From a virus: a stretch of 64,000 bases of DNA. Below, one piece after another: positions 24,707 through 43,854 of the stretch (positions within the stretch are counted from its first letter, which is position 1; each line of letters starts with the position of its first letter). The position numbers and the translations under genes are program-made. Under the pieces are notes generated by a model, which was given only the letters and a program-made list of their open reading frames with translations, searched no databases and was not told the origin of the DNA. The stretch covers positions 42,524 through 106,523 of the IMG/VR virus record IMGVR_UViG_3300030117_005808. One strand, given 5' to 3'.

Positions 24707-25611
24707 TAAAGAATGTTCTTGGACGAGGCTATCAGTCTGGTGAAGAGCATCTATTCAGTTGTCCATTTTGCGGCCATCACAAGAAGAAGATGTCTGTCAA
24801 TGTGGACAAATCTGTATTCAAATGTTGGATTTGTGACAAGTCAGGCCGAGATCTAGGCTACATTGTCCGCAAGTTTGGAACCAGAGAAGATCGTGACGAA
24901 TGGTCCAAGTATGATGACCGTGTTGAAATCACAGATTTTGACTTCTTATTTGCGGAGCCTGAAGCCCCTTCTGAGCAGCGCGTCTCTTTACCCGACCAAC
25001 TAGTCACCTTAACAGGTAAGACGCCTTCTGTGGCCTCACAGATTGCTTTAAACTACTTATCGAAGCGTGGGATCACAAGAGACGACATTCTCAAATGGAA
25101 GATCGGGTATTGCCCTGACGGAGAGTATGCTGGTCGTGTGGTTATCCCATCATTCAACGAGAACGGCTATGCAAACTACTTTATTGCACGCTCATACGGT
25201 GATGCTTGGCCAAGATATAAGAACCCGCCAGCCTCCCGTGACATTATTTTCAATGAACTGTATGTAAACTGGGATGAAGACATAGTTATAGTAGAGGGCG
25301 TCTTTGACGCCATAAAGGCCGGTAATGCAATTCCTCTTCTTGGATCAACGCTTCGTGAATCTTCTGCTCTTTTTCAAACCATTATTAAAAGCGGCTGCTC
25401 TGTGTATCTGGCTTTGGATGAAGACGCATCCAAAAAGACGCGCTCCATCACTCGCTTACTTATGAAATATGGGGTCGAGGTTTACGAGATAGACACATCC
25501 GGTGTTGAAGATGTTGGAGAAATGACAAAAGAAGAGTTTAAGCACAGGAAAAACAACGCGGCGATTATAGAAAAAGACAACTATTTATTGCAAAGGCTTT
25601 TTGCTGTTTAG
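24682..25611 (+). CDS. DNA primase (Zn-finger plus TOPRIM, DnaG-type)
   Basis: CPFC..H...FKCWIC zinc-binding domain; YLSKRGI, RYKNP, IVEGVFDA, LALDED, DVGE TOPRIM motifs. Confidence 0.9.
   Translation: MRAEKLKIIKNVLGRGYQSGEEHLFSCPFCGHHKKKMSVNVDKSVFKCWICDKSGRDLGYIVRKFGTREDRDEWSKYDDRVEITDFDFLFAEPEAPSEQRVSLPDQLVTLTGKTPSVASQIALNYLSKRGITRDDILKWKIGYCPDGEYAGRVVIPSFNENGYANYFIARSYGDAWPRYKNPPASRDIIFNELYVNWDEDIVIVEGVFDAIKAGNAIPLLGSTLRESSALFQTIIKSGCSVYLALDEDASKKTRSITRLLMKYGVEVYEIDTSGVEDVGEMTKEEFKHRKNNAAIIEKDNYLLQRLFAV
25580..25587 (+). promoter_or_regulatory. Putative late promoter motif ACTATTTA driving the leader-tagged array
   Basis: Inside the primase 3' end, 41 nt before ATG 25621. Confidence 0.55.
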
Positions 25612-25620
25612 GGTCACAAA

Positions 25621-25848
25621 ATGAAAACCACCAAATCACAGTTAAAACAAATCATTAAAGAAGAAATGTCAAATGCCCTCAAGGAGCAAGACGGTGAAGA
25701 AATAATGTCTGCCATAGAGGACGTGCCAAAGGCAGCAGAGGACATAGCAGATAAGGTGCGTGATGAGGTTGAAAAAATGGCAGAGCCATCTGGCCTCGAC
25801 CCATCAGTTTTAATGCAGGCTATTGCAGCGTTGTTACAAGCAGATTAA
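25621..25848 (+). CDS. Leader-tagged small protein 1 (MKTTKSQLKQIIKEE), putative internal head protein
   Basis: Shared N-terminal motif; acidic helical cargo. Confidence 0.7.
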   Translation: MKTTKSQLKQIIKEEMSNALKEQDGEEIMSAIEDVPKAAEDIADKVRDEVEKMAEPSGLDPSVLMQAIAALLQAD

Positions 25849-25861
25849 GGGAAAATAAACA

Positions 25862-26359
25862 GTGAAAACCACCAAATCACAACTGAGACAAATCATTAAA
25901 GAAGAAATAAGCAGCATGCTGAACAAACCAAGAACAGCAGACCAGTTTTTAGAAATGATTAAGTCTCAGTTTAGGCGGGCGGCAACAGAAAAAACTCTTG
26001 AAATGATGGCTAAATACTATGATGCAATGGTTAAGACCGCAGCCGAAAGAGCACCGCTTCAACCCAGCGACCCAAAAGAGATCGCAGCAGAGATTGGTAT
26101 TGCACAGGACAGTCCTTACCTACGGTGGGCTACTTTCCACCTAAACAAGCTTCAACAAGTACCCAGAGAGGCTTATGAAATGCTGCCCGCAAGTGACGAA
26201 CTTACCGCTATGCATTACGACCGCCTCGCAGCAAAAGAGAAAAAGCGAGCAGAGCGAGAGGCAGAGTTGCGCCGCCCGCGTACACCCGAAGAGAAAAAAG
26301 CAGCAGCAATCAAATTTGGTCAAGATATGGCCGCAGGCAAATACGGCCCGCTAGATTAA
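25862..26359 (+). CDS. Leader-tagged protein 2 (MKTTKSQLRQIIKEE), GTG start
   Basis: Shared N-terminal motif; unrelated C-terminal cargo. Confidence 0.7.
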   Translation: MKTTKSQLRQIIKEEISSMLNKPRTADQFLEMIKSQFRRAATEKTLEMMAKYYDAMVKTAAERAPLQPSDPKEIAAEIGIAQDSPYLRWATFHLNKLQQVPREAYEMLPASDELTAMHYDRLAAKEKKRAEREAELRRPRTPEEKKAAAIKFGQDMAAGKYGPLD

Positions 26360-26370
26360 GGAACAGTATT

Positions 26371-26952
26371 ATGAAAATCACAAGATCACAACTTAAACAG
26401 ATTATCAGAGAAGAGTTGGAAGAAGGCGGTCTCGCTGGGCACTACGACAAGGATCGCGACATCGCCGTATCTGACGCTCTCGTTAATGCGGTGCTTGACA
26501 TGCAGGAGATGCGTGGCGATGCGTATGCTGTAAAGGTTCTTAGAGAGATGGCTAACGACATTGAAAAAGAAATGGCCGCAAAAGACGGCCCCACTATGCA
26601 AGAGGAAGTGAAAAAACAAAGTATAAAGGCAATAATCAAGCCCATTGGTCGTATGACTCGGTACATCTTGAAAACACTCAATTATGATGAAGATCGCGAT
26701 GTTGACTACGGCATACCGGGGGAAGATCCGGGATTTGTAGATGATAAACAGTGGGTTGAACTTAAAAGTCTTGTTCAAACAACTCTTTCCAAGATTCCAA
26801 AGGCAGGAAGGGCCGATGCTATGTATGATGAAATTATGACCAACATTCAAAAACCTCGCCTTCATCGCACAGAGATTGCCGACTTTGCGTCTGCTTTTGA
26901 TGAGTATTTTATCGGGTTAGAGGCTATGGTAAGGGATGGAGATTTAAGATGA
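26371..26952 (+). CDS. Leader-tagged protein 3 (MKITRSQLKQIIREE)
   Basis: Shared N-terminal motif followed by LEE; SD AAGGA. Confidence 0.7.
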   Translation: MKITRSQLKQIIREELEEGGLAGHYDKDRDIAVSDALVNAVLDMQEMRGDAYAVKVLREMANDIEKEMAAKDGPTMQEEVKKQSIKAIIKPIGRMTRYILKTLNYDEDRDVDYGIPGEDPGFVDDKQWVELKSLVQTTLSKIPKAGRADAMYDEIMTNIQKPRLHRTEIADFASAFDEYFIGLEAMVRDGDLR

Positions 26953-27569
26953 AAATCACCAAAGAACTTTTAGAGCAAATGATTGAGGAAGCAGCATCGG
27001 AGTATGTCTATGGTGTTAAAAACCCCGGTCGTGTTGCTAATCAATACAAGATCAAAACAATCAAAAAAGTTATCTTTGAAGAGTTATCCGCAAACCTTAC
27101 TGAGGACGGACACGAAGATACATCCTCAGCTATAAGAAAGTTAAAGACTTCTATTGAAGACGCAGGAGAGATCCTACAAGGTCTCCAAGCACACCACGGT
27201 GATTTACCATCTTGGTGGATGGGCAAAGTAACTATCGCTGCTGACTATCTTAACAAAGCCAGAGACTATTTCCTTGTTTCCGGTGATGTGATGCAAGAAG
27301 AAGAGTTGGACGAGCGATGCCAGAAAGGTTACAAGACCCATCCAACACGCAAAACAAAAGAGATGTACGGCAAGACTTACCGCAATTGTATTAAAGCAGA
27401 AGGCGAGGAAGTTGAAGAGCGCAAACTAAAACCGGGCGAGAAAAGAAAACTTAAACGACTTGAAAAAGAAGTTCCCAAAAAAGACTTTACTGACCAGTAT
27501 GGAAAGGAAGGCGAATCTATTTATTATGCTACCTTGACTAAAATGGCGAAAAAGGATAAGAAAAAATGA
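26949..27569 (+). CDS. Leader-tagged protein 4 (MKITKELLEQMIEE), modular with Glu-rich linkers
   Basis: Degenerate leader plus an internal second copy (IKTIKKVIFEE); three distinct modules; ATGA overlaps on both sides. Confidence 0.7.
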   Translation: MKITKELLEQMIEEAASEYVYGVKNPGRVANQYKIKTIKKVIFEELSANLTEDGHEDTSSAIRKLKTSIEDAGEILQGLQAHHGDLPSWWMGKVTIAADYLNKARDYFLVSGDVMQEEELDERCQKGYKTHPTRKTKEMYGKTYRNCIKAEGEEVEERKLKPGEKRKLKRLEKEVPKKDFTDQYGKEGESIYYATLTKMAKKDKKK

Positions 27570-28183
27570 AAATCACTAGAGAAAAACTAAAGCAAATCAT
27601 CAAGGAAGAACTTGAGAGTGCCCTTAGTGAACAACCACGCGCCATGATCGGCGCAGGTATACCCGGCATTATGAAACGCCTTAGCCCCGTTCCGGACCAT
27701 CTGGTACAAAGCTATAAAGGAAAAAAGAAAGTCTATAACACGAATAATGGAAATATTGTGGCATTAGATGATAGGGGCATTCCTTTTGTTGCATATGCTG
27801 ATGAGATAGAGAAGAACCCCAATGCGGACTACCAATTCGCGATAGACACGCTTAAAAAAAATGGCTATGTAGAAGCTTCTCTAAGTGTCCCTATGTCTCC
27901 GGCAAATCTTGAAGCACTCACTCTCGGAGCTATCAAAGGGGAAGAGATCGACCGTGGCTATGTACAAAGAGCGCGCCCAAACTTTAAGAATCAGGACAAA
28001 GATATCCCCCGGATTAAACAAGTCATCGGCAAGAGAGAACTATCAGACCCAAGTATGCCTAACTGGGATCCCAGCAAAAATCAAATAGTTTACTTGGGAT
28101 CACGGACACTTCGTTCCGGAGATCAGGAAATCTACTTTAAGACATCAAATACTCACAAGTATTATAAAGCATTGTCCAGATAA
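27566..28183 (+). CDS. Leader-tagged protein 5 (MKITREKLKQIIKEE)
   Basis: Shared N-terminal motif followed by LESALSE. Confidence 0.7.
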   Translation: MKITREKLKQIIKEELESALSEQPRAMIGAGIPGIMKRLSPVPDHLVQSYKGKKKVYNTNNGNIVALDDRGIPFVAYADEIEKNPNADYQFAIDTLKKNGYVEASLSVPMSPANLEALTLGAIKGEEIDRGYVQRARPNFKNQDKDIPRIKQVIGKRELSDPSMPNWDPSKNQIVYLGSRTLRSGDQEIYFKTSNTHKYYKALSR

Positions 28184-28196
28184 AGGGAATAACATT

Positions 28197-28646
28197 ATGA
28201 AAACCACCAAACAACAACTTAGACAAATCATCAAAGAAGAGTTAGAGGTCATCCTCACAAACGAGGAGGCAGGCGAACTCTTTGGCGAGGGTGTTGAAGC
28301 AGAGTTAGAAGAAGAGTTGAACGAAGATCTGACTACTATTATGCAGAATCTTACACCTGAGAATCTTGATTTGATTGTTAGGTCTATCATTCAGGTTGGC
28401 ACAACATTTGGTGTTCCGATGCTCGCCGCCGCCCTTGGTAAGTTGGGCCTTGAAGCAGCACAGGCAGCAAGAACAGCCGGCAAGGCGAAAACGATGATTG
28501 GTGATAAGGATTCCGGCAGGTTAGTTGATTTTCTGTATCATGAAATAACAGGTTATAGAGATTTTAAAGGGCAGGATAAGCAGTCACTTGAAGATGCCGA
28601 AAAAGAGTTCCCAATGGCGCCCGCCCGTCCCCCTATGCCTAAATAA
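28197..28646 (+). CDS. Leader-tagged protein 6 (MKTTKQQLRQIIKEE)
   Basis: Shared N-terminal motif; ELEEELNE linker; short hydrophobic segment. Confidence 0.7.
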   Translation: MKTTKQQLRQIIKEELEVILTNEEAGELFGEGVEAELEEELNEDLTTIMQNLTPENLDLIVRSIIQVGTTFGVPMLAAALGKLGLEAAQAARTAGKAKTMIGDKDSGRLVDFLYHEITGYRDFKGQDKQSLEDAEKEFPMAPARPPMPK

Positions 28647-28656
28647 AAAATAATCC

Positions 28657-28685
28657 TTGACAACAAGTTTGTAACAGGTTATAAT
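28657..28685 (+). promoter_or_regulatory. Consensus sigma70 promoter TTGACA-17-TATAAT
   Basis: TTGACA 28657-62 and TATAAT 28680-85, A-rich UP-like tract upstream, intergenic before 28712. Confidence 0.8.
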
Positions 28686-28711: not shown

Positions 28712-31700
28712 TTGAAGATAGCACATATCGCGGATACACACATCCGCAACTATAAGTATCATAGAGAGTATCGTGAGATATTCGATCTTATCTATGATAG
28801 ACTGAAAACAGAGAAAGTTGACTACATTGTTCACTGCGGAGATCTCGCACACACAAAGACACAACTTTCTCCTGAATACTTTGACTTGGCGACATCGTTC
28901 TTAAAGAACCTTGCCGACATTGCGCCGACCTACATCATTCTTGGCAACCACGACGGTAACCTAAAGAATGAACACAGGCAAGACGCAATCACGCCAATCG
29001 CAAACGCACTCCGACACCCGAATCTCAACCTGTTAAAGAACGCAGGCGAGACGATTGTCGAAGGCAACATAGCGTTTAACGTTCTTTCCGTCTTTGATGA
29101 AGAGAACTGGGTGAAGCCGACAAGCGACAAACGCATTAACATTGCGCTGTATCACGGCTCTGTGTCCGGTGTTACAACCGACACAGGCTGGGTAATGACG
29201 CACGGCGACCACCCTATCACAGTCTTTGAAGGGCACGACTATGTGTTCCTCGGGGACATCCACAAAACAAACCAAATCCTCGATGACGAGGGACGTGTAA
29301 GGTATCCGGGCTCCACTGTTCAGCAGAACTTTGGTGAGACGGATGACAAAGGCTTCCTGCTCTGGAACATCCAAAGCAAAGAAGACTTTACTTGTGAACA
29401 CGTTGTAATCCCAAACCCCAAGCCTTTTATAACAATAAACCTAACCCCCACTGGGCGTATGCCCAAAGGCTTGACCGTGAAGAAGGGTGCAAGATTACGA
29501 CTTGTGTCTAACAATAATCTATCTCTTGAAGCGATGCGAAAGGCAGTTGATGTCGCAAAGCAACGCTTCAAGCCCGATACTATTACATTCTTAAACCGCG
29601 CAGCAGGGGAGCGTGGTAATGTTGAAGAAATCACGGACAGTATTCAACAAGACGATATGCGTAATCCACAGATCCAAGAGGAACTTATCCGCGAGTATCT
29701 AGTAGATTACCAAGCCAGCGAAGAACTGATGAAAAAGGTTCTGGACCTTAATACTCTCTACATTAAGAAGGCAGAAGAGTCCGAGGAGATCTCTAGAAAC
29801 ATCAAGTGGCGTATCAACGATCTACAGTGGGATAATCTGTTTAACTACGGTGAAGGCAATAGAATTGATTTTAATAAACTAAACGGAACAGTTGGTATCT
29901 TCGGTAAGAACTACTCCGGTAAATCCAGTGTGGTGGACAGCTTATTATATACTTTGTACAACACAACGTCTAAGAATGAGCGTAAGAATGTCAACATTAT
30001 TAATCAAAACAAGGACGAAGGCTCTGGCGAGGTTGTAATTACTATTGGCGATGAGCAGTATTACGTCCGTCGCGGCTCGTCAAAATACACAAAACGACTC
30101 AAGGGTGTGGAAACTCTTGAAGCCAAAACTGATCTTGACTTCTTCAAGGTCGGCCCAGACGGAGAAAAGGTAAGTTTAAATGGCCTCACAAGAAACGACA
30201 CAGACAAAAACATCAGAAAGGTATTCGGAACTCTTGATGACTTCCTTCTCACTAGTTTGTCTAGCCAGTTGGATAGTCTTTCCTTTATTAGGGAAGGTAG
30301 CACAAAACGGAAGGAAATCTTGGCAAAGTTTCTCGACTTGGAAATCTTCGAGAAAAAGTTCAGACTAGCGAAGGAAGATGCATCTGATATGCGAGGTGCT
30401 TTGAAGCGCCTTGAAGGACGCGACTATGATACAGAGATCGAAGAAGCAGAACAAGAGCACACTCAATGTGAAGAGGAGTTGGATGACCAAAAGGTTAAGT
30501 GCGCCGACTTAAGGCAAGAAGTTATTGATCTTAGAGACAACATTACAGAGATAGAAGGTAAGATTGCATCTATCCCTGCTGAGATGATTGATATTGCAAA
30601 AGTCAAAATAGATATTAGACAAAGGCGTCTGGACCTCACCTCGGCACAAAAAGATCTTGAACAAGACAAGAAAACACTCAAAGATAAAAAGAAACTTACC
30701 AAAGATATTGATAAGTTCTTGGCAGGTTATGACGTTACAGATCTTGGCGATAAAGAAAAGAGGTGCGATCAGCTAGGCTTTGAGATAATGGATTTGGACA
30801 GAGAAATGATCCAGATCGTGAAAAAAGCTGCATCTCTCGACGATCCCGGCTTCTTGCGTGGTTGCAAGTGTTTGCACGAAGCAGAAGAAGCTTTAGCACA
30901 GAAGCCAGACCTTGAACAAAAAATCGAAGAACTTTCTCAGGAACTTGAAGGGCTTGATGTTGAATCTGTCAAGAAAAGCCTTGAGCAGTATCGTTCGCTA
31001 GCAGATAAAAAGAACCAAACGACGAGAGATATCACAACCACAGAACTTGCTATTGCTCGTAACCAGAATACGATCAATCGTCTGGCCACAGAGTTGTCTA
31101 ATCTAAAAGACAAAGAAACATCTTATGAAGACAACCGTGAAGCTATTGAAAACTTGGAAGCACTCCTGACTGAGAAAGACGGCTTAGACGCAGATATATC
31201 TATTAAGGAAGGTAAGCTAGAGGCTTGCAAAGATAAAATTGTTGATTACCACAGAAGAGTTGGCTCGTTAGAGCAAAAAGTTATCAACATTAAGGATCAG
31301 AAGAACGACTATCTTGAGCTACGCGAACAGTTCGCAGCCTACGATCTTTACATGCGTTGTATGCACCCTAACGGTATCGCATACGATGTTATCAAGAAGA
31401 AGCTTCCAGTTATCAACCAAGAGATAGCAAAGGTTCTTACAAACCTAACAAACTTTGAAGTCCTTTTTGAAGAGGATGGAAATAAGCTTGATATCTTTAT
31501 CAAGCACCCGAAGCATGACCCTCGTCCACTCTCTATGGCTTCGGGAGCAGAGAAGACAATGGCCGCAATGGCTATCCGTCTTGCTTTCCTTGCAGTGTCA
31601 AACCTGCCTACAAGCGACATTATGGTGCTTGATGAACCGGGGACAGCATTGGATGAGGAGCACTTACAAGCATTTACCCAACTTTTGGACATGATTAAGG

Positions 31701-31810
31701 TGCATTTCAAGACAACACTTTTGATTTCCCATTTGGATTCTTTGAAAGATGTTGTTGATTTAACACTTGACATTTCCAAAAAAGAAGGTTATGCTTATAT
31801 AAACCAATAA
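28712..31810 (+). CDS. Mre11/SbcD nuclease - Rad50/SbcC ATPase fusion (T4 gp47+gp46-like)
   Basis: Phosphoesterase motifs HIADTH, GDL, GNHD, GDIH; Walker A GKNYSGKSS; coiled coil; signature ASGAE; Walker B VLDEP; LISH; TTG start. Confidence 0.88.
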   Translation: MKIAHIADTHIRNYKYHREYREIFDLIYDRLKTEKVDYIVHCGDLAHTKTQLSPEYFDLATSFLKNLADIAPTYIILGNHDGNLKNEHRQDAITPIANALRHPNLNLLKNAGETIVEGNIAFNVLSVFDEENWVKPTSDKRINIALYHGSVSGVTTDTGWVMTHGDHPITVFEGHDYVFLGDIHKTNQILDDEGRVRYPGSTVQQNFGETDDKGFLLWNIQSKEDFTCEHVVIPNPKPFITINLTPTGRMPKGLTVKKGARLRLVSNNNLSLEAMRKAVDVAKQRFKPDTITFLNRAAGERGNVEEITDSIQQDDMRNPQIQEELIREYLVDYQASEELMKKVLDLNTLYIKKAEESEEISRNIKWRINDLQWDNLFNYGEGNRIDFNKLNGTVGIFGKNYSGKSSVVDSLLYTLYNTTSKNERKNVNIINQNKDEGSGEVVITIGDEQYYVRRGSSKYTKRLKGVETLEAKTDLDFFKVGPDGEKVSLNGLTRNDTDKNIRKVFGTLDDFLLTSLSSQLDSLSFIREGSTKRKEILAKFLDLEIFEKKFRLAKEDASDMRGALKRLEGRDYDTEIEEAEQEHTQCEEELDDQKVKCADLRQEVIDLRDNITEIEGKIASIPAEMIDIAKVKIDIRQRRLDLTSAQKDLEQDKKTLKDKKKLTKDIDKFLAGYDVTDLGDKEKRCDQLGFEIMDLDREMIQIVKKAASLDDPGFLRGCKCLHEAEEALAQKPDLEQKIEELSQELEGLDVESVKKSLEQYRSLADKKNQTTRDITTTELAIARNQNTINRLATELSNLKDKETSYEDNREAIENLEALLTEKDGLDADISIKEGKLEACKDKIVDYHRRVGSLEQKVINIKDQKNDYLELREQFAAYDLYMRCMHPNGIAYDVIKKKLPVINQEIAKVLTNLTNFEVLFEEDGNKLDIFIKHPKHDPRPLSMASGAEKTMAAMAIRLAFLAVSNLPTSDIMVLDEPGTALDEEHLQAFTQLLDMIKVHFKTTLLISHLDSLKDVVDLTLDISKKEGYAYINQ

Positions 31811-38751: not shown

Positions 38752-39057
38752 ATGGAATTATTGTGGTTTGCGCTCGCTTGCTACGGCTTGACTTATCTTG
38801 TCGTGTATGCGAGCATTTTTAATAGAATCCGACCAAGCAGAGAATGGCTTGGTGGTTTTGGCAAGTTATTTAACTGCACCCTGTGCTTTGGCTTCCACGC
38901 AGGCTGGTTTTTGTTTGTCATAAACCGTTGGACAGAACTATTTACTTTTGACTATACTATCGCAAACTTTTTTATTTGTGGTTGGGTAGGTGCTGGAGTT
39001 TCTTACATTCTTTCAATGATTGTTGGTGACGAAGGTATTCGGATAACAAAGGAGTAA
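38752..39057 (+). CDS. Small membrane protein with CxxC (DUF1360-like)
   Basis: Three hydrophobic segments; LFNCTLCFGFHAGW motif. Confidence 0.55.
   Translation: MELLWFALACYGLTYLVVYASIFNRIRPSREWLGGFGKLFNCTLCFGFHAGWFLFVINRWTELFTFDYTIANFFICGWVGAGVSYILSMIVGDEGIRITKE
38937..38944 (+). promoter_or_regulatory. Putative late promoter motif ACTATTTA (intragenic)
   Basis: Exact motif upstream of the 39061 peptide and the prohead protease. Confidence 0.4.
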
Positions 39058-39111: not shown

Positions 39112-39152
39112 CTCGGGCGGGTCGCGCCCGCCAACGTCAATTGGAGATAACT

Positions 39153-39767
39153 ATGGGAAAATCACTTTTACGAGAATATTACGCACTTTGTGATGGTGGC
39201 GTCTGTCAAGACTTACTGACTGAAGAAGAAAAGAAGTTGATGTCCGCCGGCAAGAAGTTTTACATGACCGGCTGCATGCAGAAGTTTGATACACCAAACG
39301 GAAACGGTCGCGTTTATTCCAAAGAGATCCTCCAACGCGAAGTAGAAAACTATTGGAAACTTGTCAAGGAGCGTAGAGCACTTGGTGAGTTAGACCATCC
39401 CGATGACTCTGTTATTAACTTAAAGAATGCATCTCACCTTGTAACAGACATGTGGTGGGACGGCCCCGCTCTTATGGGCAAGGTCGAGGTTCTAGATACA
39501 CCATCAGGCAACATTTTAAAACAACTGGCTAACTCTGGTGTCACACTTGGCATTTCATCCCGTGGCCTTGGGTCAGTCAAAGAGGTTCGCGGAACTACAA
39601 TGGTCGAAGACGATTTTCAACTTATCTGCTTTGATTTCGTCTCGGAACCATCTACTCCCGGTGCTTTCATGCATTCCGATAAAAGAATGCGAGAACACAA
39701 AGAACCAAATATTTTTACAAAAGCAGATAAGATAAACAGAATCTTAAATAATATTTTGAGAGATTGA
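39153..39767 (+). CDS. Prohead protease (T4 gp21-like)
   Basis: NGNGRVY, ALGELDHP, ASHLV, LGISSRGLGS, FDFVSEPSTPGA; ATG 39153 has a GGAG SD (track gives TTG 39141). Confidence 0.93.
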   Translation: MGKSLLREYYALCDGGVCQDLLTEEEKKLMSAGKKFYMTGCMQKFDTPNGNGRVYSKEILQREVENYWKLVKERRALGELDHPDDSVINLKNASHLVTDMWWDGPALMGKVEVLDTPSGNILKQLANSGVTLGISSRGLGSVKEVRGTTMVEDDFQLICFDFVSEPSTPGAFMHSDKRMREHKEPNIFTKADKINRILNNILRD

Positions 39768-39768
39768 G

Positions 39769-40197
39769 ATGAAAAGAACAGAACTTAAAAAATTAATAAA
39801 GCCATTAGTAAAAGAATGTGTCCAAGAGACGATTTTAAATGATGGTCTTTTATCAAATATAGTCTCTGAGGTAATGCAAGGAATGGGAAACCAGTTCCTC
39901 GTAGAAAATAAAGAACAGGTTGTTCCCACAATGTCTAACGAAAACAGTGTACAACTAGAACAACTAAAAGAAAGACAACAAGAGACTAGAAAACGATTGC
40001 TTGATGAAATAGGTCACGATGCTTACAATGGTGTTGACCTTTTTGAAGGCACGACGCCTATTAGAGATAGCGGGCAACCCTCCGCGACGGCTCAAGCGAA
40101 CCCAATGTTTGGTCAGGATCCTGACGATGCAGGCGTGGACATTTCATCGATCGTCGCATTAGGTGGAAAAAACTGGAAAGCTTTAGCGAGTAACTAA
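39769..40197 (+). CDS. Hypothetical head protein with leader-like N-terminus (MKRTELKKLIKPLVKE)
   Basis: Directly after the protease; N-terminus resembles the array leader. Confidence 0.55.
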   Translation: MKRTELKKLIKPLVKECVQETILNDGLLSNIVSEVMQGMGNQFLVENKEQVVPTMSNENSVQLEQLKERQQETRKRLLDEIGHDAYNGVDLFEGTTPIRDSGQPSATAQANPMFGQDPDDAGVDISSIVALGGKNWKALASN

Positions 40198-40696: not shown

Positions 40697-40972
40697 ATGA
40701 GCTACCATAATAGAAGAGGCAATCGAGGACGCAATCCAAAAAAGTTTTATTATAAGACAAGACGACCTGCCCACGTTGCTACCTACGCCAAAGAAGGCGA
40801 ACATCCAGAACGCACTATAAAACGTTTCCTTAAGAAGTGTAAGAAGGAAAAAATCATAGAGCAAGTAAGAAAATACGATTATTACGAAAAGCCATCTGTT
40901 AAGCGAAAACGAGCTAGATCTAGACGCAAAGCGGTTCTAAAAAAGCTAAATGAGCAAAACAAGAAGACATAA
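40697..40972 (+). CDS. rpsU: Phage-encoded ribosomal protein bS21
   Basis: EGEHPERTIKRFLKKCKKEKIIEQVRKYDYYEKPSVKRKR matches the bS21 pattern (E..ALRRFK...YEKPS..RK). Confidence 0.85.
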   Translation: MSYHNRRGNRGRNPKKFYYKTRRPAHVATYAKEGEHPERTIKRFLKKCKKEKIIEQVRKYDYYEKPSVKRKRARSRRKAVLKKLNEQNKKT

Positions 40973-41041: not shown

Positions 41042-42013
41042 ATGCCAACACTCTTAGAACAAGCTATTATTGATGCACAAGAACTTAGAGACGCCGCGCT
41101 AAAGAACGCCGAGTCTACTATTCTAGAAAAGTATAACAACGAAGTGAAGAATGTTGTTGAAACCCTCTTGGAGCAGGAAGAGGAAATGATGGGGGCTATG
41201 GAAGAACCTGCCTTCGCCGCTGCCGAAGAAGAGGAAATGTGTCCTTGCCCGGACAAGGAAGAGGAAGAGACCGTAATGTTCAGTCTTGATGACCTAAAAG
41301 CCATGGCTGATGAACTTGACGGTGATGCTCTTGGGACTCCCGAGGATCAAGAAGATCTTATGACTGATCTTGGAATGGAGCCCGAAGAAGAGGAAGACAC
41401 ACTTCCCCTTCAAGAAGATCTTCAGTTGGTTGAAGAAGAAGTTGAACTCGATGAAGCTACAATCAAAGAACTTGTTGAAGAATTGGTTGTTGATGTTGTG
41501 CCTACCAAGAGTGGCTGGCTAGCAACTCCTCAAGGCGAGATGCAATATGCAGAAGAATTAGAATTGGCTAGACTGGCTAGCACAGAGGCCCAAGAGCAGA
41601 TTAAAGCTCTTAAGGATGCCCGTGACCGTCTAACCATCACAAACGAATCTTTGACAAGCGACAATAAGAAGCTTGTTGAGGGCATCTTAGCATTGAAAGA
41701 GAAGGTTGAACAAACCCTCTTGGAAAATGCGAAACTACTCTATATGAATCAGGCATTGAATAGTGCCTCCCTGAATGAGCGACAAAAGTCAAACGTTGTC
41801 GAGTCTATTCGCAAGGCTGATTCTGTTGAAGAGGCGAAGGTAATATTTGAAACCCTTCAAAGCGCAGCGGGCGATTCTACTCGTAGAAAGCCAAAATCGT
41901 TGAGCGAAGCAATCAGTAGACCTTCATCGACATTGCCAAGACGAAGAAAAGAAAGAGCACAAGGGGAAACCATTGTGAAGGATCGATTCCAAAGATTGGC
42001 AGGACTTAAATGA
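41042..42013 (+). CDS. Prohead core scaffolding protein (gp22-like)
   Basis: Very acidic coiled coil with many (L/I)xE sites, between protease and MCP; C-terminal DRFQRLAGLK. Confidence 0.75.
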   Translation: MPTLLEQAIIDAQELRDAALKNAESTILEKYNNEVKNVVETLLEQEEEMMGAMEEPAFAAAEEEEMCPCPDKEEEETVMFSLDDLKAMADELDGDALGTPEDQEDLMTDLGMEPEEEEDTLPLQEDLQLVEEEVELDEATIKELVEELVVDVVPTKSGWLATPQGEMQYAEELELARLASTEAQEQIKALKDARDRLTITNESLTSDNKKLVEGILALKEKVEQTLLENAKLLYMNQALNSASLNERQKSNVVESIRKADSVEEAKVIFETLQSAAGDSTRRKPKSLSEAISRPSSTLPRRRKERAQGETIVKDRFQRLAGLK

Positions 42014-42054: not shown

Positions 42055-43854
42055 ATGTCAGTATTAAATAAATTAACTGAAGGAATCGTTAACCGCGATC
42101 TCCGTCAGGAAGGCGATGCTCTTATCTCCAAGTGGGAAAAGACCGGACTCCTCGAAGGCCTCAATAACGATGTCACGAAGAACGGTATGGCTCGTCTCCT
42201 TGAAAACCAAGCCAAGCAGCTTCTGAAAGAGGCTTCTTCTATGGCAGCAGGCGATGTGGAAGGTTTTGCTTCCGTCGCTTTCCCGCTCGTTCGCCGCGTG
42301 TTCGGTGGTCTTTTGGCCAACGATCTCGTTAGCGTTCAGCCGATGAGTCTCCCAAGTGGTCTCATCTTCTTCCTCGATTTCACTTACGAGGCTGGTAAGC
42401 TCGGCCTCGCCGCCGGCGAATCCGTCTACGGTGGTGGAGTTGTTGGTAAGGGCATCCAAACGGGTGTCACAGACATCACCGAAGAGGGTGGTGGCCTGTA
42501 TAACTTGCAGAATGGTTACTCGCAAGTAAGTGCTTCGACAACTGTTGCAACTACCATTGTTGCTTCTGGTAACGTCGGTGTGGGTGGTATTCCCGAGTTT
42601 GGTGATACAACTGTTTCTGGCTTTACTGCTGGTTATGACCTTGCTCGTCTTCTGAAGTTCGACGTGGACCTTGTGTCTGGTTCGGCTTTCGCAGCAGCAA
42701 CAGTGCCATTGGCTACACTCACAGCAGCAGGCGTGCGATTCAACGAGGATGACTTTGTTGATATCAAGCTTGCCGACCAAAGCATTGACGGTGGTCTCGG
42801 TACTCTTACTGATGGTCTTCAAGTTCGTCGCTTGACCCAGCTTGACCCAACTGAGAATGCAGCTTCGGCAACTAGGCTTCTGTTTGTTGTCGCCGCAACT
42901 GGTTCGGAAACAACCGCGCAGATGACGACCTCGCTCAACGCTGTTGATCTTGCACTTCACACCATCGTGGATGACTTCATCGCTGGCGGCGCCATCGGTG
43001 CTGTTGTTGGTGATGATACTTGGGGTCTTGAAGAGCCTCAGTTCGGTACCGGCAATGCTGGTTCTACGACGGCTAAGAACGAGATCCCCGAGATCGACAT
43101 CAAGGTGGACTCGATTGCTGTTACGGCACAAACCCGTAAGCTGAAAGCTAAGTGGTCGCCGGAACTTGGTCAGGACTTGAACGCCTACCACAACCTTGAT
43201 GCCGAGGTTGAGTTGACTAGTGTTCTCTCTGAGCAGATTGCTCTTGAGATCGACCGTGAGATCGTTTCTGATCTTATTAACGGTGCAACTGCTGGTACGT
43301 TCTATTGGTCGCGCTCTCCGGGCATGTTCCTGAACCGCACAACCGGTGCAGAGATTGGCGCTTCAACCGCCGCTCCTGACTTCACTGGTACGGTTTCCGA
43401 ATGGTACGAGACCCTTATCGAGACTGTTAATGATGTCTCGGCACAGATCCACCGCAAGACTCTGCGGGGTGGAGCTAACTTCATCGTGACCTCACCTGAA
43501 GTTGCTAACATCCTTGAGTTCACCGCTGGTTTCCGTGCAAGCGTCACCGCTGATGCTGATCGTGGCACCGCAGGTGCTGTGAACGTTGGTGCTATCTCGA
43601 AGAAGTTCGACGTGTACGTCGATCCTTACTTCCCTCGCAACGTGCTGCTTGTCGGCCGTAAGGGTGGTAGCTTCCTTGAGTCGGGCTATGTTTACGCTCC
43701 GTATGTGCCGTTACAGGTCACGCCGACTATCTTCGGTACCGAGGACTTCATCCCCCGCAAGGGCGTGATGACTCGCTACGCTAAGAAGATGGTCCGTCCT
43801 GATATGTACGGTCTGGTCATCTGTCGTGGCCTTCTCGGTGAGTCTGGCGCTTAG
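42055..43854 (+). CDS. Major capsid protein (T4 gp23-like)
   Basis: LLENQ, PLVRRV, VSVQPMSLPSGLIF, RKLKAKWSPELGQDLNAYH, EIDREI, YAPYVPL, GVMTRY; strong codon bias; SD AAGGAGGT. Confidence 0.97.
   Translation: MSVLNKLTEGIVNRDLRQEGDALISKWEKTGLLEGLNNDVTKNGMARLLENQAKQLLKEASSMAAGDVEGFASVAFPLVRRVFGGLLANDLVSVQPMSLPSGLIFFLDFTYEAGKLGLAAGESVYGGGVVGKGIQTGVTDITEEGGGLYNLQNGYSQVSASTTVATTIVASGNVGVGGIPEFGDTTVSGFTAGYDLARLLKFDVDLVSGSAFAAATVPLATLTAAGVRFNEDDFVDIKLADQSIDGGLGTLTDGLQVRRLTQLDPTENAASATRLLFVVAATGSETTAQMTTSLNAVDLALHTIVDDFIAGGAIGAVVGDDTWGLEEPQFGTGNAGSTTAKNEIPEIDIKVDSIAVTAQTRKLKAKWSPELGQDLNAYHNLDAEVELTSVLSEQIALEIDREIVSDLINGATAGTFYWSRSPGMFLNRTTGAEIGASTAAPDFTGTVSEWYETLIETVNDVSAQIHRKTLRGGANFIVTSPEVANILEFTAGFRASVTADADRGTAGAVNVGAISKKFDVYVDPYFPRNVLLVGRKGGSFLESGYVYAPYVPLQVTPTIFGTEDFIPRKGVMTRYAKKMVRPDMYGLVICRGLLGESGA

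Follow-up and report, generated by a model that had tools for sequence, protein, structure and literature searches.

The uncultured, marine, T4-like phage studied here is represented by a 106.5 kb contig (~46% complete by CheckV), of which a window of 64,000 nt was analysed (IMG/VR record IMGVR_UViG_3300030117_005808, positions 42,524 to 106,523; coordinates below are those of the window). Six adjoining genes on the + strand (25621-28646) encode proteins with one N-terminal tag in common. The N-termini of these consecutive ORFs are exactly as quoted in a preliminary description of the locus, with the consensus MK[TI]T[KR]xxLxQ[IM]IxEE and a mean identity of 70% over the first 15 residues. The bodies are unrelated after this shared leader, as had also been claimed, and pairwise blastp of residues 23 onward gives no match below E=1. 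The successive genes are spaced by 13, 11, -4, -4, and 13 nt, and they account for all six copies of the tag found in the contig. The array lies where it had been placed, among replication genes, between those for primase and SbcCD.

Array member 1 (25621-25848, +) is a 75-aa protein with the tag at residues 1-15, IKE at 12-14 and LKE at 20-22; its acidic cargo (pI 4.05) belongs to a cluster absent from the other loci compared. Member 2 (25862-26359, +; 165 aa, GTG start) has a cargo common to only one of the loci compared, L001, and the single [LI]xE in the whole protein is the IKE of the tag (12-14). A hydrophobic-x-E site had been described soon after the leader. A downstream L-x-E is indeed present in some members, but member 2 has none nearby, and the conserved protease-type site lies not downstream but inside the tag, as I12-x-E14 in 6 of 6 members. 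Member 3 (26371-26952, +; 193 aa) is composed of the tag, a module A (~27-69), an MQEE junction (71-82) that is disordered in the AF2 model, and a module B (85-193) with pLDDT 80-90. In an alignment of its homologues, some are without module A and some have a different module B, and the breakpoints fall at [LM]xE sites. Member 4 (26949-27569, +; 206 aa) contains the tag, an inserted module of ~30 aa, a weak second half-tag at residues 39-53 (2.6 bits), a “DGHED” module and a basic tail, and looks like two fused cassettes; in relatives, the DGH module comes straight after the tag in L009, and in P0022 a complete internal tag precedes it. Member 5 (27566-28183, +; 205 aa, pI 9.2) is basic and shows a tag helix (5-21), a linker (20-30, pLDDT<50) and an alpha/beta body. 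It has only eight homologues among 5.8 billion proteins, and a Foldseek comparison of its weak model (mean pLDDT 65) with the PDB gave nothing at E<=0.001. Member 6 (28197-28646, +; 149 aa) is acidic and carries the most widely shared cargo, which in relatives is usually encoded by the last gene before SbcCD.

Overall, three of the array proteins are acidic and three have pI 8.8-9.2. Searches of all six against Pfam and PHROGs gave nothing below E 0.002, and members 4 and 6 matched only viral hypothetical clusters in the ESM Atlas, below 0.9. No match was found for the array region by blastn in 50,697 phage records, nor for the 25-aa tag by tblastn in phage records, a search that serves short, low-complexity queries poorly.

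The virion-gene motif reported in front of the array is confirmed. The candidate late promoter element ACTATTTA (25580-25587, +) is located within the 3' end of the primase gene, 41 nt 5' of the first array gene. The window contains 12 copies against 2.8 expected, all on the + strand, and the whole contig has 16 on + and 0 on -. Copies also lie 24-60 nt 5' of the genes for the baseplate wedge, sheath, tube, and scaffold, and the motif is the commonest 8-mer in front of the arrays of relatives (23/67 arrays vs 9.8% background). Placement alone suggests that ACTATTTA is a late promoter. The replication genes flanking the array have perfect sigma-70 promoters instead, and one of these (TTGACA-17-TATAAT, 28657-28685, +) lies where the array ends, ahead of a fused SbcD-SbcC gene, in agreement with the earlier statement that a sigma70 promoter resumes there.

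The head module of the phage is of T4 type, with portal, S77 protease, gp23 capsid protein and gp22-like scaffold. The prohead protease of the T4 gp21 type (39141-39767, +; Pfam Peptidase_S77 8.3e-30, phrog_207 1e-52) probably has its true start at the ATG at 39153, relatives beginning at the equivalent Met, and is presumed to be the enzyme cutting the tag. Directly 3' of it is a gene for a 142-aa protein (39769-40197, +) with a tag-like N-terminus, MKRTELKKLIKPLVKE, that matches the tag profile only weakly (hhalign P 0.0013; 1.5 bits). Homologues 35-56% identical are kept after the protease in six relatives, and the protein is likely a component of the prohead core; T4 gp68 was considered as a relative of this family and rejected, hhalign finding no detectable homology. 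The acidic, coiled-coil product of 41042-42013 (+) has no family match in PHROGs or Pfam. The gene precedes that for the capsid protein; this position, the composition of the product and an N-terminus like that of T4 gp22 point to a gp22-like scaffold, which is presumed to be the docking partner of the tag. The major capsid protein of the gp23 type (42055-43854, +; Pfam Gp23 1.4e-73) has a propeptide with a predicted cut between LKE and Ala at about residue 59, aligning with LTE and Ala in T4 and with VSE and Ala in the cultured Flavobacterium phage vB_FspM_immuto. The canonical tag is absent from the head module of the source phage itself.

Related phages place the tag in a wider setting. Tagged genes are present in 18 of 18 large related contigs (1-11 each), and S77 in 17 of the 18; in all eight related genomes inspected, a canonical-tag gene is the immediate neighbour of the protease gene. 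Tagged proteins of the cultured vB_FspM_immuto include gp175, gp176, gp190, and gp198. Between primase and SbcCD, relatives have one to six tagged genes, and the content of this slot differs even where the primases of two phages are 86-94% identical. The scan with a leader profile for copy number and cargo turnover, which the preliminary description had proposed, returned six copies in the contig, turnover in a conserved slot and, from public metagenomes, 13,025 protein clusters, some with internal tag copies. Pfam recognised one EF-hand and nothing else among 149 tagged proteins from this global search, and gave no hit above cut-off for seven protease-adjacent tagged proteins. No relevant publication came up in a literature search for the motif strings of the tag.

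Conservation of the tag was assessed in a set of 111 unique proteins that carry it, drawn from the source contig and 53 related ones. I12 is conserved in 100%, E14 in 99%, L8 in 97%, and E15 in 93%. In 110 of the 111 proteins, residue 14 closes an [LIM]xE motif, and a second one ends at residues 20-24 in 62; within the cargo the motif is neither enriched nor depleted (184 observed vs 170 +/- 10 in shuffles). The cargo itself falls into 73 clusters, the same cargo being found behind the same tag with and without extra modules, and it has a median pI of 4.75 (70/110 below 5). Copies of the tag are also internal or C-terminal in some proteins. The global search returned apparent polyproteins with several tags, P0009 and P0014 among them, and no ORF with two strong tags is present in loci L001-L098.

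We consider it reasonably probable, at roughly 0.6, that the shared N-terminus is a propeptide which targets proteins to the capsid, like that of the T4 internal proteins, a judgement formed from sequence. The tag would be an amphipathic helix of ~16-22 residues that may dock the protein onto the scaffold core during prohead assembly. A gp21-type (S77) protease would cut after Glu14 (I12-x-E14) and/or after the second L-x-E near residue 22, and cleavage would free the variable body within the head. The six genes would form one operon transcribed with the virion genes, presumably late, from the ACTATTTA-type promoter, and the primase-SbcCD slot would be a hot spot where the phages acquire, lose, fuse, and split tagged cassettes.

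T4 IPI, IPII, and IPIII and their capsid-targeting sequence (CTS) were reportedly described by Mullaney and Black in 1996. Like the tagged proteins, they have a short N-terminal propeptide on otherwise unrelated small proteins, whose last residues, (L/I)-x-E, are a site for an S77 protease of the gp21 type. Their genes are also located outside the head module, their cargo also varies between related phages, and the tandem ipIII-ipII genes, whose products have one and the same tag on bodies that differ, resemble the array. Both the CTS and the tag begin with MK and, when aligned on the cut site, follow the pattern hydrophobic-xx-hydrophobic-hydrophobic-x-E, so that L8/I11/I12/E14 of the tag correspond to Y4/F7/I8/E10 of the CTS. 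Residues 4 and 7 of the CTS are reported to govern targeting, and 8 and 10 processing (PMC9026906).

There are differences as well. The tag is 14-22 aa long compared with 10 aa for the CTS, and the residue after the proposed cut at E14 is Glu (93%), whereas it is Ala at the T4 sites and at the capsid site of the source phage; the protease may therefore cut at the second site instead, or not at all. The arrays are larger than those of T4 (up to six genes here, and as many as 11 tagged genes in one genome), most of the cargo is acidic while T4 IPII and IPIII are basic (pI 9.6) and DNA-associated, and unlike the T4 proteins the tagged clade is uncultured, marine, and known here from sequence. Unlike the CTS, the tag is in addition found internally or C-terminally in polyprotein-like forms, copies that a strictly N-terminal signal would not predict. 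Together with the acidic cargo, the position of the array among replication genes and the lack of a canonical tag in the phage's own head module, they count against the CTS reading. The tag profile had no match in T4 (at E<=1, MKTYQEFIAE included), Syn9, HTVC008M, or RM378, and homology with the T4 CTS is thus not established. The analogy with T4 drawn in the preliminary description stands in every feature that sequence can address (S77 family, capsid site, I-x-E, promoter motif, turnover, and protease-adjacent tags) and falls short in the cargo, which is mostly acidic unlike IPII and IPIII and has no recognisable domain. To call the system “analogous but distinct” is fair, though the capsid-targeting principle was already established for T-even phages (PMC3012670, PMC9026906).

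Two further systems are comparable in part. In the giant phages phiKZ, 201phi2-1, and SPN3US, ejection or inner-body proteins are cut after Glu by a gp21-related protease, the paralogous head proteins gp53 and gp54 have identical N-termini and diverged bodies, and the propeptides are thought to serve as CTS (PMC5694885). However, these propeptides are mostly >100 aa with an S/A-x-E motif, as opposed to 14-22 aa and I-x-E here, and the ejection proteins are large, with no cassette array under a common short tag. In P1, an N-terminal signal of ~30 aa suffices to bring DarB into the head, from which it is delivered to counter restriction (PMC9024508). P1 is another type of phage, and the Dar signal serves one large protein, loaded stepwise in dependence on other Dar proteins, unlike a tag common to many cargoes.

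Two extensions of the capsid-targeting reading are put forward with less assurance. That the bodies are delivered with the DNA into the host as anti-defence or takeover proteins is a tentative proposal, which we place below even odds. Slightly more doubtful again is a view of the tag as a position-independent “dock-and-cut” module, placed N-terminally, between modules, or C-terminally, which in a large clade of marine T4-like phages would load mix-and-match cargo and polyproteins whose pieces are released in the prohead; the >13,000 clusters, all lacking known domains, would then be a vast and rapidly changing store of virion-delivered effectors, anti-defence proteins among them.

The alternative that survives best, although we think it unlikely, is that the tagged proteins are accessory core or scaffold parts, targeted to the prohead, chopped up and then for the most part either expelled or retained in the form of acidic peptides, and not effectors delivered to the host. 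The T4 prohead-core proteins gp67, gp68, gp22, and Alt are cut by gp21, Alt at both ends (PMC9026906). They are incorporated in the core and encoded beside the protease, the position within the head module that canonical-tag genes occupy in relatives, and gp67, gp68, and gp22 are acidic as is most of the cargo. Some protease-adjacent tagged proteins have motifs at both ends, and such terminal or internal motifs are expected of proteins cut in pieces; the joining of modules at [LM]xE sites would fit as well. T4 gp67 has a DLIKEE sequence similar to IIKEE, the core of the tag, but the similarity is limited to five residues (1.5 bits). On the other hand, assembly parts do not usually show turnover as extreme as 73 clusters in 111 proteins, or 13,025 overall, a pattern typical of genes in an arms race; the cargo shows no enrichment of [LIM]xE, and several bodies look folded, such as module B of member 3.

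It is quite improbable that the tag helix docks to some other partner (replisome, RNA polymerase, chaperone, or a host hub) and that the array encodes unpackaged takeover or replication accessory proteins. The location between primase and SbcCD, here and in relatives, is what one would expect from this, but T4 internal-protein genes likewise lie outside the head module, and a near-invariant protease-type site within the tag, tagged genes adjoining the prohead protease in eight of eight relatives, and a virion-gene motif before the array where its neighbours have sigma-70 promoters all speak against it.

Ordinary fast-diverging paralogues, with the N-terminal helix as part of a common fold, are a very improbable explanation, even if duplication is the simplest origin for a tandem array of similar-sized genes. 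A leader lying within a shared fold had been named beforehand as an observation that would speak against an address tag, and the AF2 models of members 3 and 5 do not show it; the tag is a separate helix (5-18 and 5-21) followed by a disordered linker with pLDDT <50 in both, and the bodies are all-helical in member 3 and alpha/beta in member 5. The absence of pairwise similarity past residue 22 (E>1) and the fact that one cargo can follow the same tag either alone or with additional modules are also at odds with it. Conservation at the nucleic-acid level, be it of a recombination site or of an RNA element with a role in regulation or translation initiation, is hardly credible. Within the source genome some tags are encoded by near-identical DNA, which could promote cassette recombination, but codon analysis led to the rejection of this reading: synonymous codons at the conserved residues follow background usage across 110 distinct tag DNAs (five codons at L8; ATC 43% and ATT 55% at I12), which indicates selection on the peptide, and internal copies without a start codon are conserved too.

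If the tag works as a capsid-targeting propeptide, one short motif would identify the head-carried proteins of a widespread group of ocean phages, proteins that could until now be reached mostly in T4, P1, and a small number of giant phages, and thousands of protein families would become prime candidates for injected counter-defence or takeover factors. The capsid-targeting principle would then reach from T-even coliphages to distant T4-like phages, cassettes would be seen to fuse into polyproteins and split again, and a second natural tag would be available for loading foreign proteins into phage heads. The cultured relative vB_FspM_immuto carries a shorter variant of the tag, which makes the idea directly testable.

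Six neighboring + strand genes of the window (members 1-6: 25621-25848; 25862-26359, with a GTG start; 26371-26952; 26949-27569; 27566-28183; 28197-28646) are tightly packed, with intergenic gaps of 13, 11, -4, -4, and 13 nt, and all open with a common N-terminal tag. The six N-termini read exactly as the preliminary description quoted them (mean identity of 70% across residues 1-15), and the complete divergence it noted behind the leader is borne out, as blastp of all pairs from residue 23 onward gave nothing below E = 1. No family match was found in Pfam or PHROG for any member. The tag motif occurs six times in the 106.5 kb contig; since this IMG/VR fragment has a CheckV completeness of only ~46%, further copies may be present in the full genome. 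We consider it fairly probable (about 0.62) that these genes represent a T4-style capsid-targeting propeptide system, with a tag of its own, in a large marine clade of uncultured T4-like phages. The principle is already established for T-even phages, where diverse internal proteins share just one conserved element, the capsid-targeting sequence (CTS) (PMC3012670), and the distinct tag would be a variant thereof; analogous signals occur in giant phages and P1 (PMC5694885, PMC9024508).

Related viral contigs were sampled through a primase anchor (80 contigs, primase identity 48-99%) and scanned with a 24-column HMM of the tag, whose scores are bimodal. The scan turned up 135 ORFs with the tag, 111 of them unique, spread over 53 loci and the window contig; every match is N-terminal and on the primase strand. 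The conserved positions are Met1 (100%), Lys2 (90%), Ile/Leu3 (89%), Thr4 (90%), Lys5 (76%), Leu8 (97%), Ile11 (85%), Ile12 (100%), Lys13 (66%), Glu14 (99%), Glu15 (93%), and Leu/Ile/Val16 (82%). Of the 111 unique proteins, 110 have an [LIM]-x-E ending at residue 14, which places the protease-type site within the tag itself. The hydrophobic-x-E site originally placed soon after the leader does exist as a second [LIM]-x-E, ending at residues 20-24 in 62/111 proteins and thus less constant than the one within the tag.

According to its sequence record, phage T4 has the tag MKTYQEFIAE on two tandem genes, ipIII and ipII. Aligned at the cut site, Leu8, Ile11, Ile12, and Glu14 of the present tag lie over Tyr4, Phe7, Ile8, and Glu10 of T4, where targeting is reported to depend on residues 4 and 7 and processing on residues 8 and 10 (PMC9026906, section 2.6). 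We regard this likeness as pattern resemblance only, and the tag profile found nothing in T4, Syn9, HTVC008M, or RM378. The proposed cut in the tag is followed by Glu, whereas Ala follows at the T4 sites and at the capsid site of the window phage, so cleavage may use the second site or be inefficient. The T4 prohead-core protein gp67 (gene 67, 2282-2524 of the T4 locus L087) contains DLIKEEK, resembling the tag core IIKEE; at five residues and 1.5 bits, the resemblance is possibly due to chance.

On one side of the array are the genes for a RuvC-like resolvase and DNA primase, on the other that for a fused SbcD-SbcC nuclease; a T4-type head module starts ~5 kb downstream. This module encodes the large terminase and portal, a gp21-type prohead protease (39141-39767, +; Peptidase_S77, Pfam 8.3e-30) followed by a 142-aa protein, a very basic 91-aa bS21 homolog (40697-40972, +; Pfam Ribosomal_S21, 1.9e-12), an acidic scaffold-like protein, and a gp23-type capsid protein (Pfam 1.4e-73). 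Judged by the capsid protein, the nearest relatives in culture are Flavobacterium phage vB_FspM_immuto (48% identity), Microcystis phage Mel-JY01, and Rhodothermus phage RM378; a nucleotide-level search of 50,697 phage records gave no match. The window protease plausibly retains gp21's specificity for (L/I)-x-E (PMC9026906, section 2.5), because the predicted capsid propeptide end, LKE/A, aligns with LTE/A of T4 gp23 (VSE/A in immuto). The protease ORF as listed opens at TTG, while relatives open at a Met equivalent to ATG 39153, probably the true start. A 101-aa protein with predicted membrane-spanning segments (38752-39057, +) is conserved a short way upstream of the protease in every relative inspected, an uncommon feature in a T4-type head module. 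The bS21 homolog keeps its head-module place in three relatives (L099, L100, L101). The nuclease is a single 1032-aa ORF (28712-31810, +) joining Mre11-like SbcD (phrog_100, residues 1-362) to Rad50-like SbcC (phrog_77, residues 295-1031); the fused gene is conserved across related loci, and a perfect sigma-70 promoter (28657-28685) precedes the window copy.

Four lines, namely promoter motif, co-occurrence, adjacency, and a cultured relative, connect the tag to head assembly. The 8-nt motif ACTATTTA occurs 16 times on the + strand of the contig and 0 times on the - strand, with 12 copies in the window against 2.8 expected (among them + strand copies at 485, 20711, 25580, 31810, 40197, 40994, 43923, 46906, 49960, and 52604). 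For most copies, the start of a virion gene follows after 24-60 nt (baseplate wedge, tail sheath, tail tube, scaffold, or a further head gene), and one copy lies 41 nt upstream of member 1, in agreement with the virion-gene motif reported there earlier. For the adjoining replication genes, the promoters are instead perfect TTGACA/TATAAT ones (24146 and 28657), the latter being the sigma70 promoter said to resume after the array. Upstream of the arrays of relatives, ACTATTTA is the commonest 8-mer (23/67 vs 9.8% background). Its placement suggests a late promoter. The late promoter of T4, TATAAATA, has another sequence and shows no enrichment here (8 copies, 3.6 expected, the majority on the - strand). 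In the 80 related loci together, CTATTTA has 293 + strand and 45 - strand occurrences.

As for co-occurrence, tagged genes are present in 18/18 large related contigs (1-11 each) and the S77 protease in 17/18. A canonical-tag gene immediately precedes or follows the protease gene in all eight relatives whose protease region was fetched, the position occupied by the gp67, gp68, and gp22 genes in the T4 gene order. Such a gene is absent beside the protease of the window phage, and the conserved 142-aa protein there has an N-terminus, MKRTELKKLIKPLVKE, weakly resembling the tag. In immuto, a shorter variant (MKKSQLRQIIKEAL and similar) is carried by gp175 and gp176, just upstream of the primase, and by gp190, while gp198 (73 aa), between portal and protease, has a related N-terminus; all four are annotated as hypothetical.

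Scanning the genome and relatives with a leader HMM, as the preliminary description had proposed, revealed cargo turnover beside the six copies of the contig: the 111 tagged proteins fall into 73 cargo clusters (blastp E<1e-3). In relatives, the primase-SbcCD slot contains between one and six tagged genes, and its content varies even among phages with primases 86-94% identical; a second hot spot, after SbcCD, is seen in other lineages. Modular exchange behind a constant tag is evident from homolog alignments: some proteins have the C-terminal module of member 3 immediately after the tag, and others pair its N-terminal module with a different C-terminal one. The breakpoints fall at MQE and LTE sites. 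Member 4 resembles a fusion of two cassettes: a weak half-tag (2.6 bits) spans residues 39-53, and the database protein P0022 has the same "DGH" module behind a full internal tag. In such hot spots, tagged cassettes would undergo turnover, fusion, and splitting.

AlphaFold2 models of members 5 and 3 are of modest quality (mean pLDDT 65 and 68, respectively). Member 5 has a tag helix at residues 5-21 and pLDDT <50 at residues 20-30, and its model gave no fold match in the PDB. In member 3, the tag helix (5-18) gives way to a disordered stretch (19-31) and then a helical module; after a further disordered stretch (71-82), which includes the MQEE junction, comes a confident C-terminal module (pLDDT 80-90). 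With a separate helix followed by disorder in both, the tag is not predicted to lie within a shared fold, whereas membership of such a fold had been named as counting against an address tag.

Delivery of the cargo bodies to the host as effectors is a tentative proposal. Mature cargo is mostly acidic (median pI 4.75; 70/110 below 5; 4.05, 8.76, 4.67, 9.03, 9.24, and 4.41 for members 1-6), in contrast to T4 IPII and IPIII at pI 9.6, a profile no less compatible with scaffold-like acidic core proteins than with DNA-bound internal proteins. That the bodies are expendable core components is considered less likely than delivery. An RNA or DNA element as the target of tag conservation is ruled out by background-like synonymous codons, since in 110 distinct tag DNAs the choice at conserved residues follows that of the cargo (five codons for Leu8; ATC 43% and ATT 55% for Ile12); selection therefore acts on the peptide.

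A 30-column tag profile searched against 1.84 billion representative proteins gave 13,025 matches at E<=0.001, of which 182 reach E<=1e-10. The best 150 of the 13,025 mostly carry two to four tags per single ORF (145 N-terminal and 169 internal copies). Their sources are marine metagenomes (GOS, Tara, ENA, JGI), all are named "hypothetical", and in 149 of them the sole Pfam domain was one EF-hand. As 69 internal copies lack Met at position 1, at least some appear to be genuine in-frame repeats rather than gene-caller merges of adjacent genes. In two relatives, the protein encoded right after the prohead protease (L103:864-1853 and L102:723-1181, both -) has an N-terminal tag and, from the DNA read, a tag-like motif at the extreme C-terminus (17.1 and 12.7 bits, respectively), reminiscent of T4 Alt, which is trimmed at both ends. 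Given these internal and C-terminal copies, the motif is not strictly an N-terminal signal. Immediately ahead of internal copies (database proteins P0009-P0158), x-E-[GNS]-x-K recurs (e.g., LKENK, QEGTNK, LEESK), which could be an extra protease site or what is left, in frame, of the A-rich translation-initiation region of a formerly separate gene.
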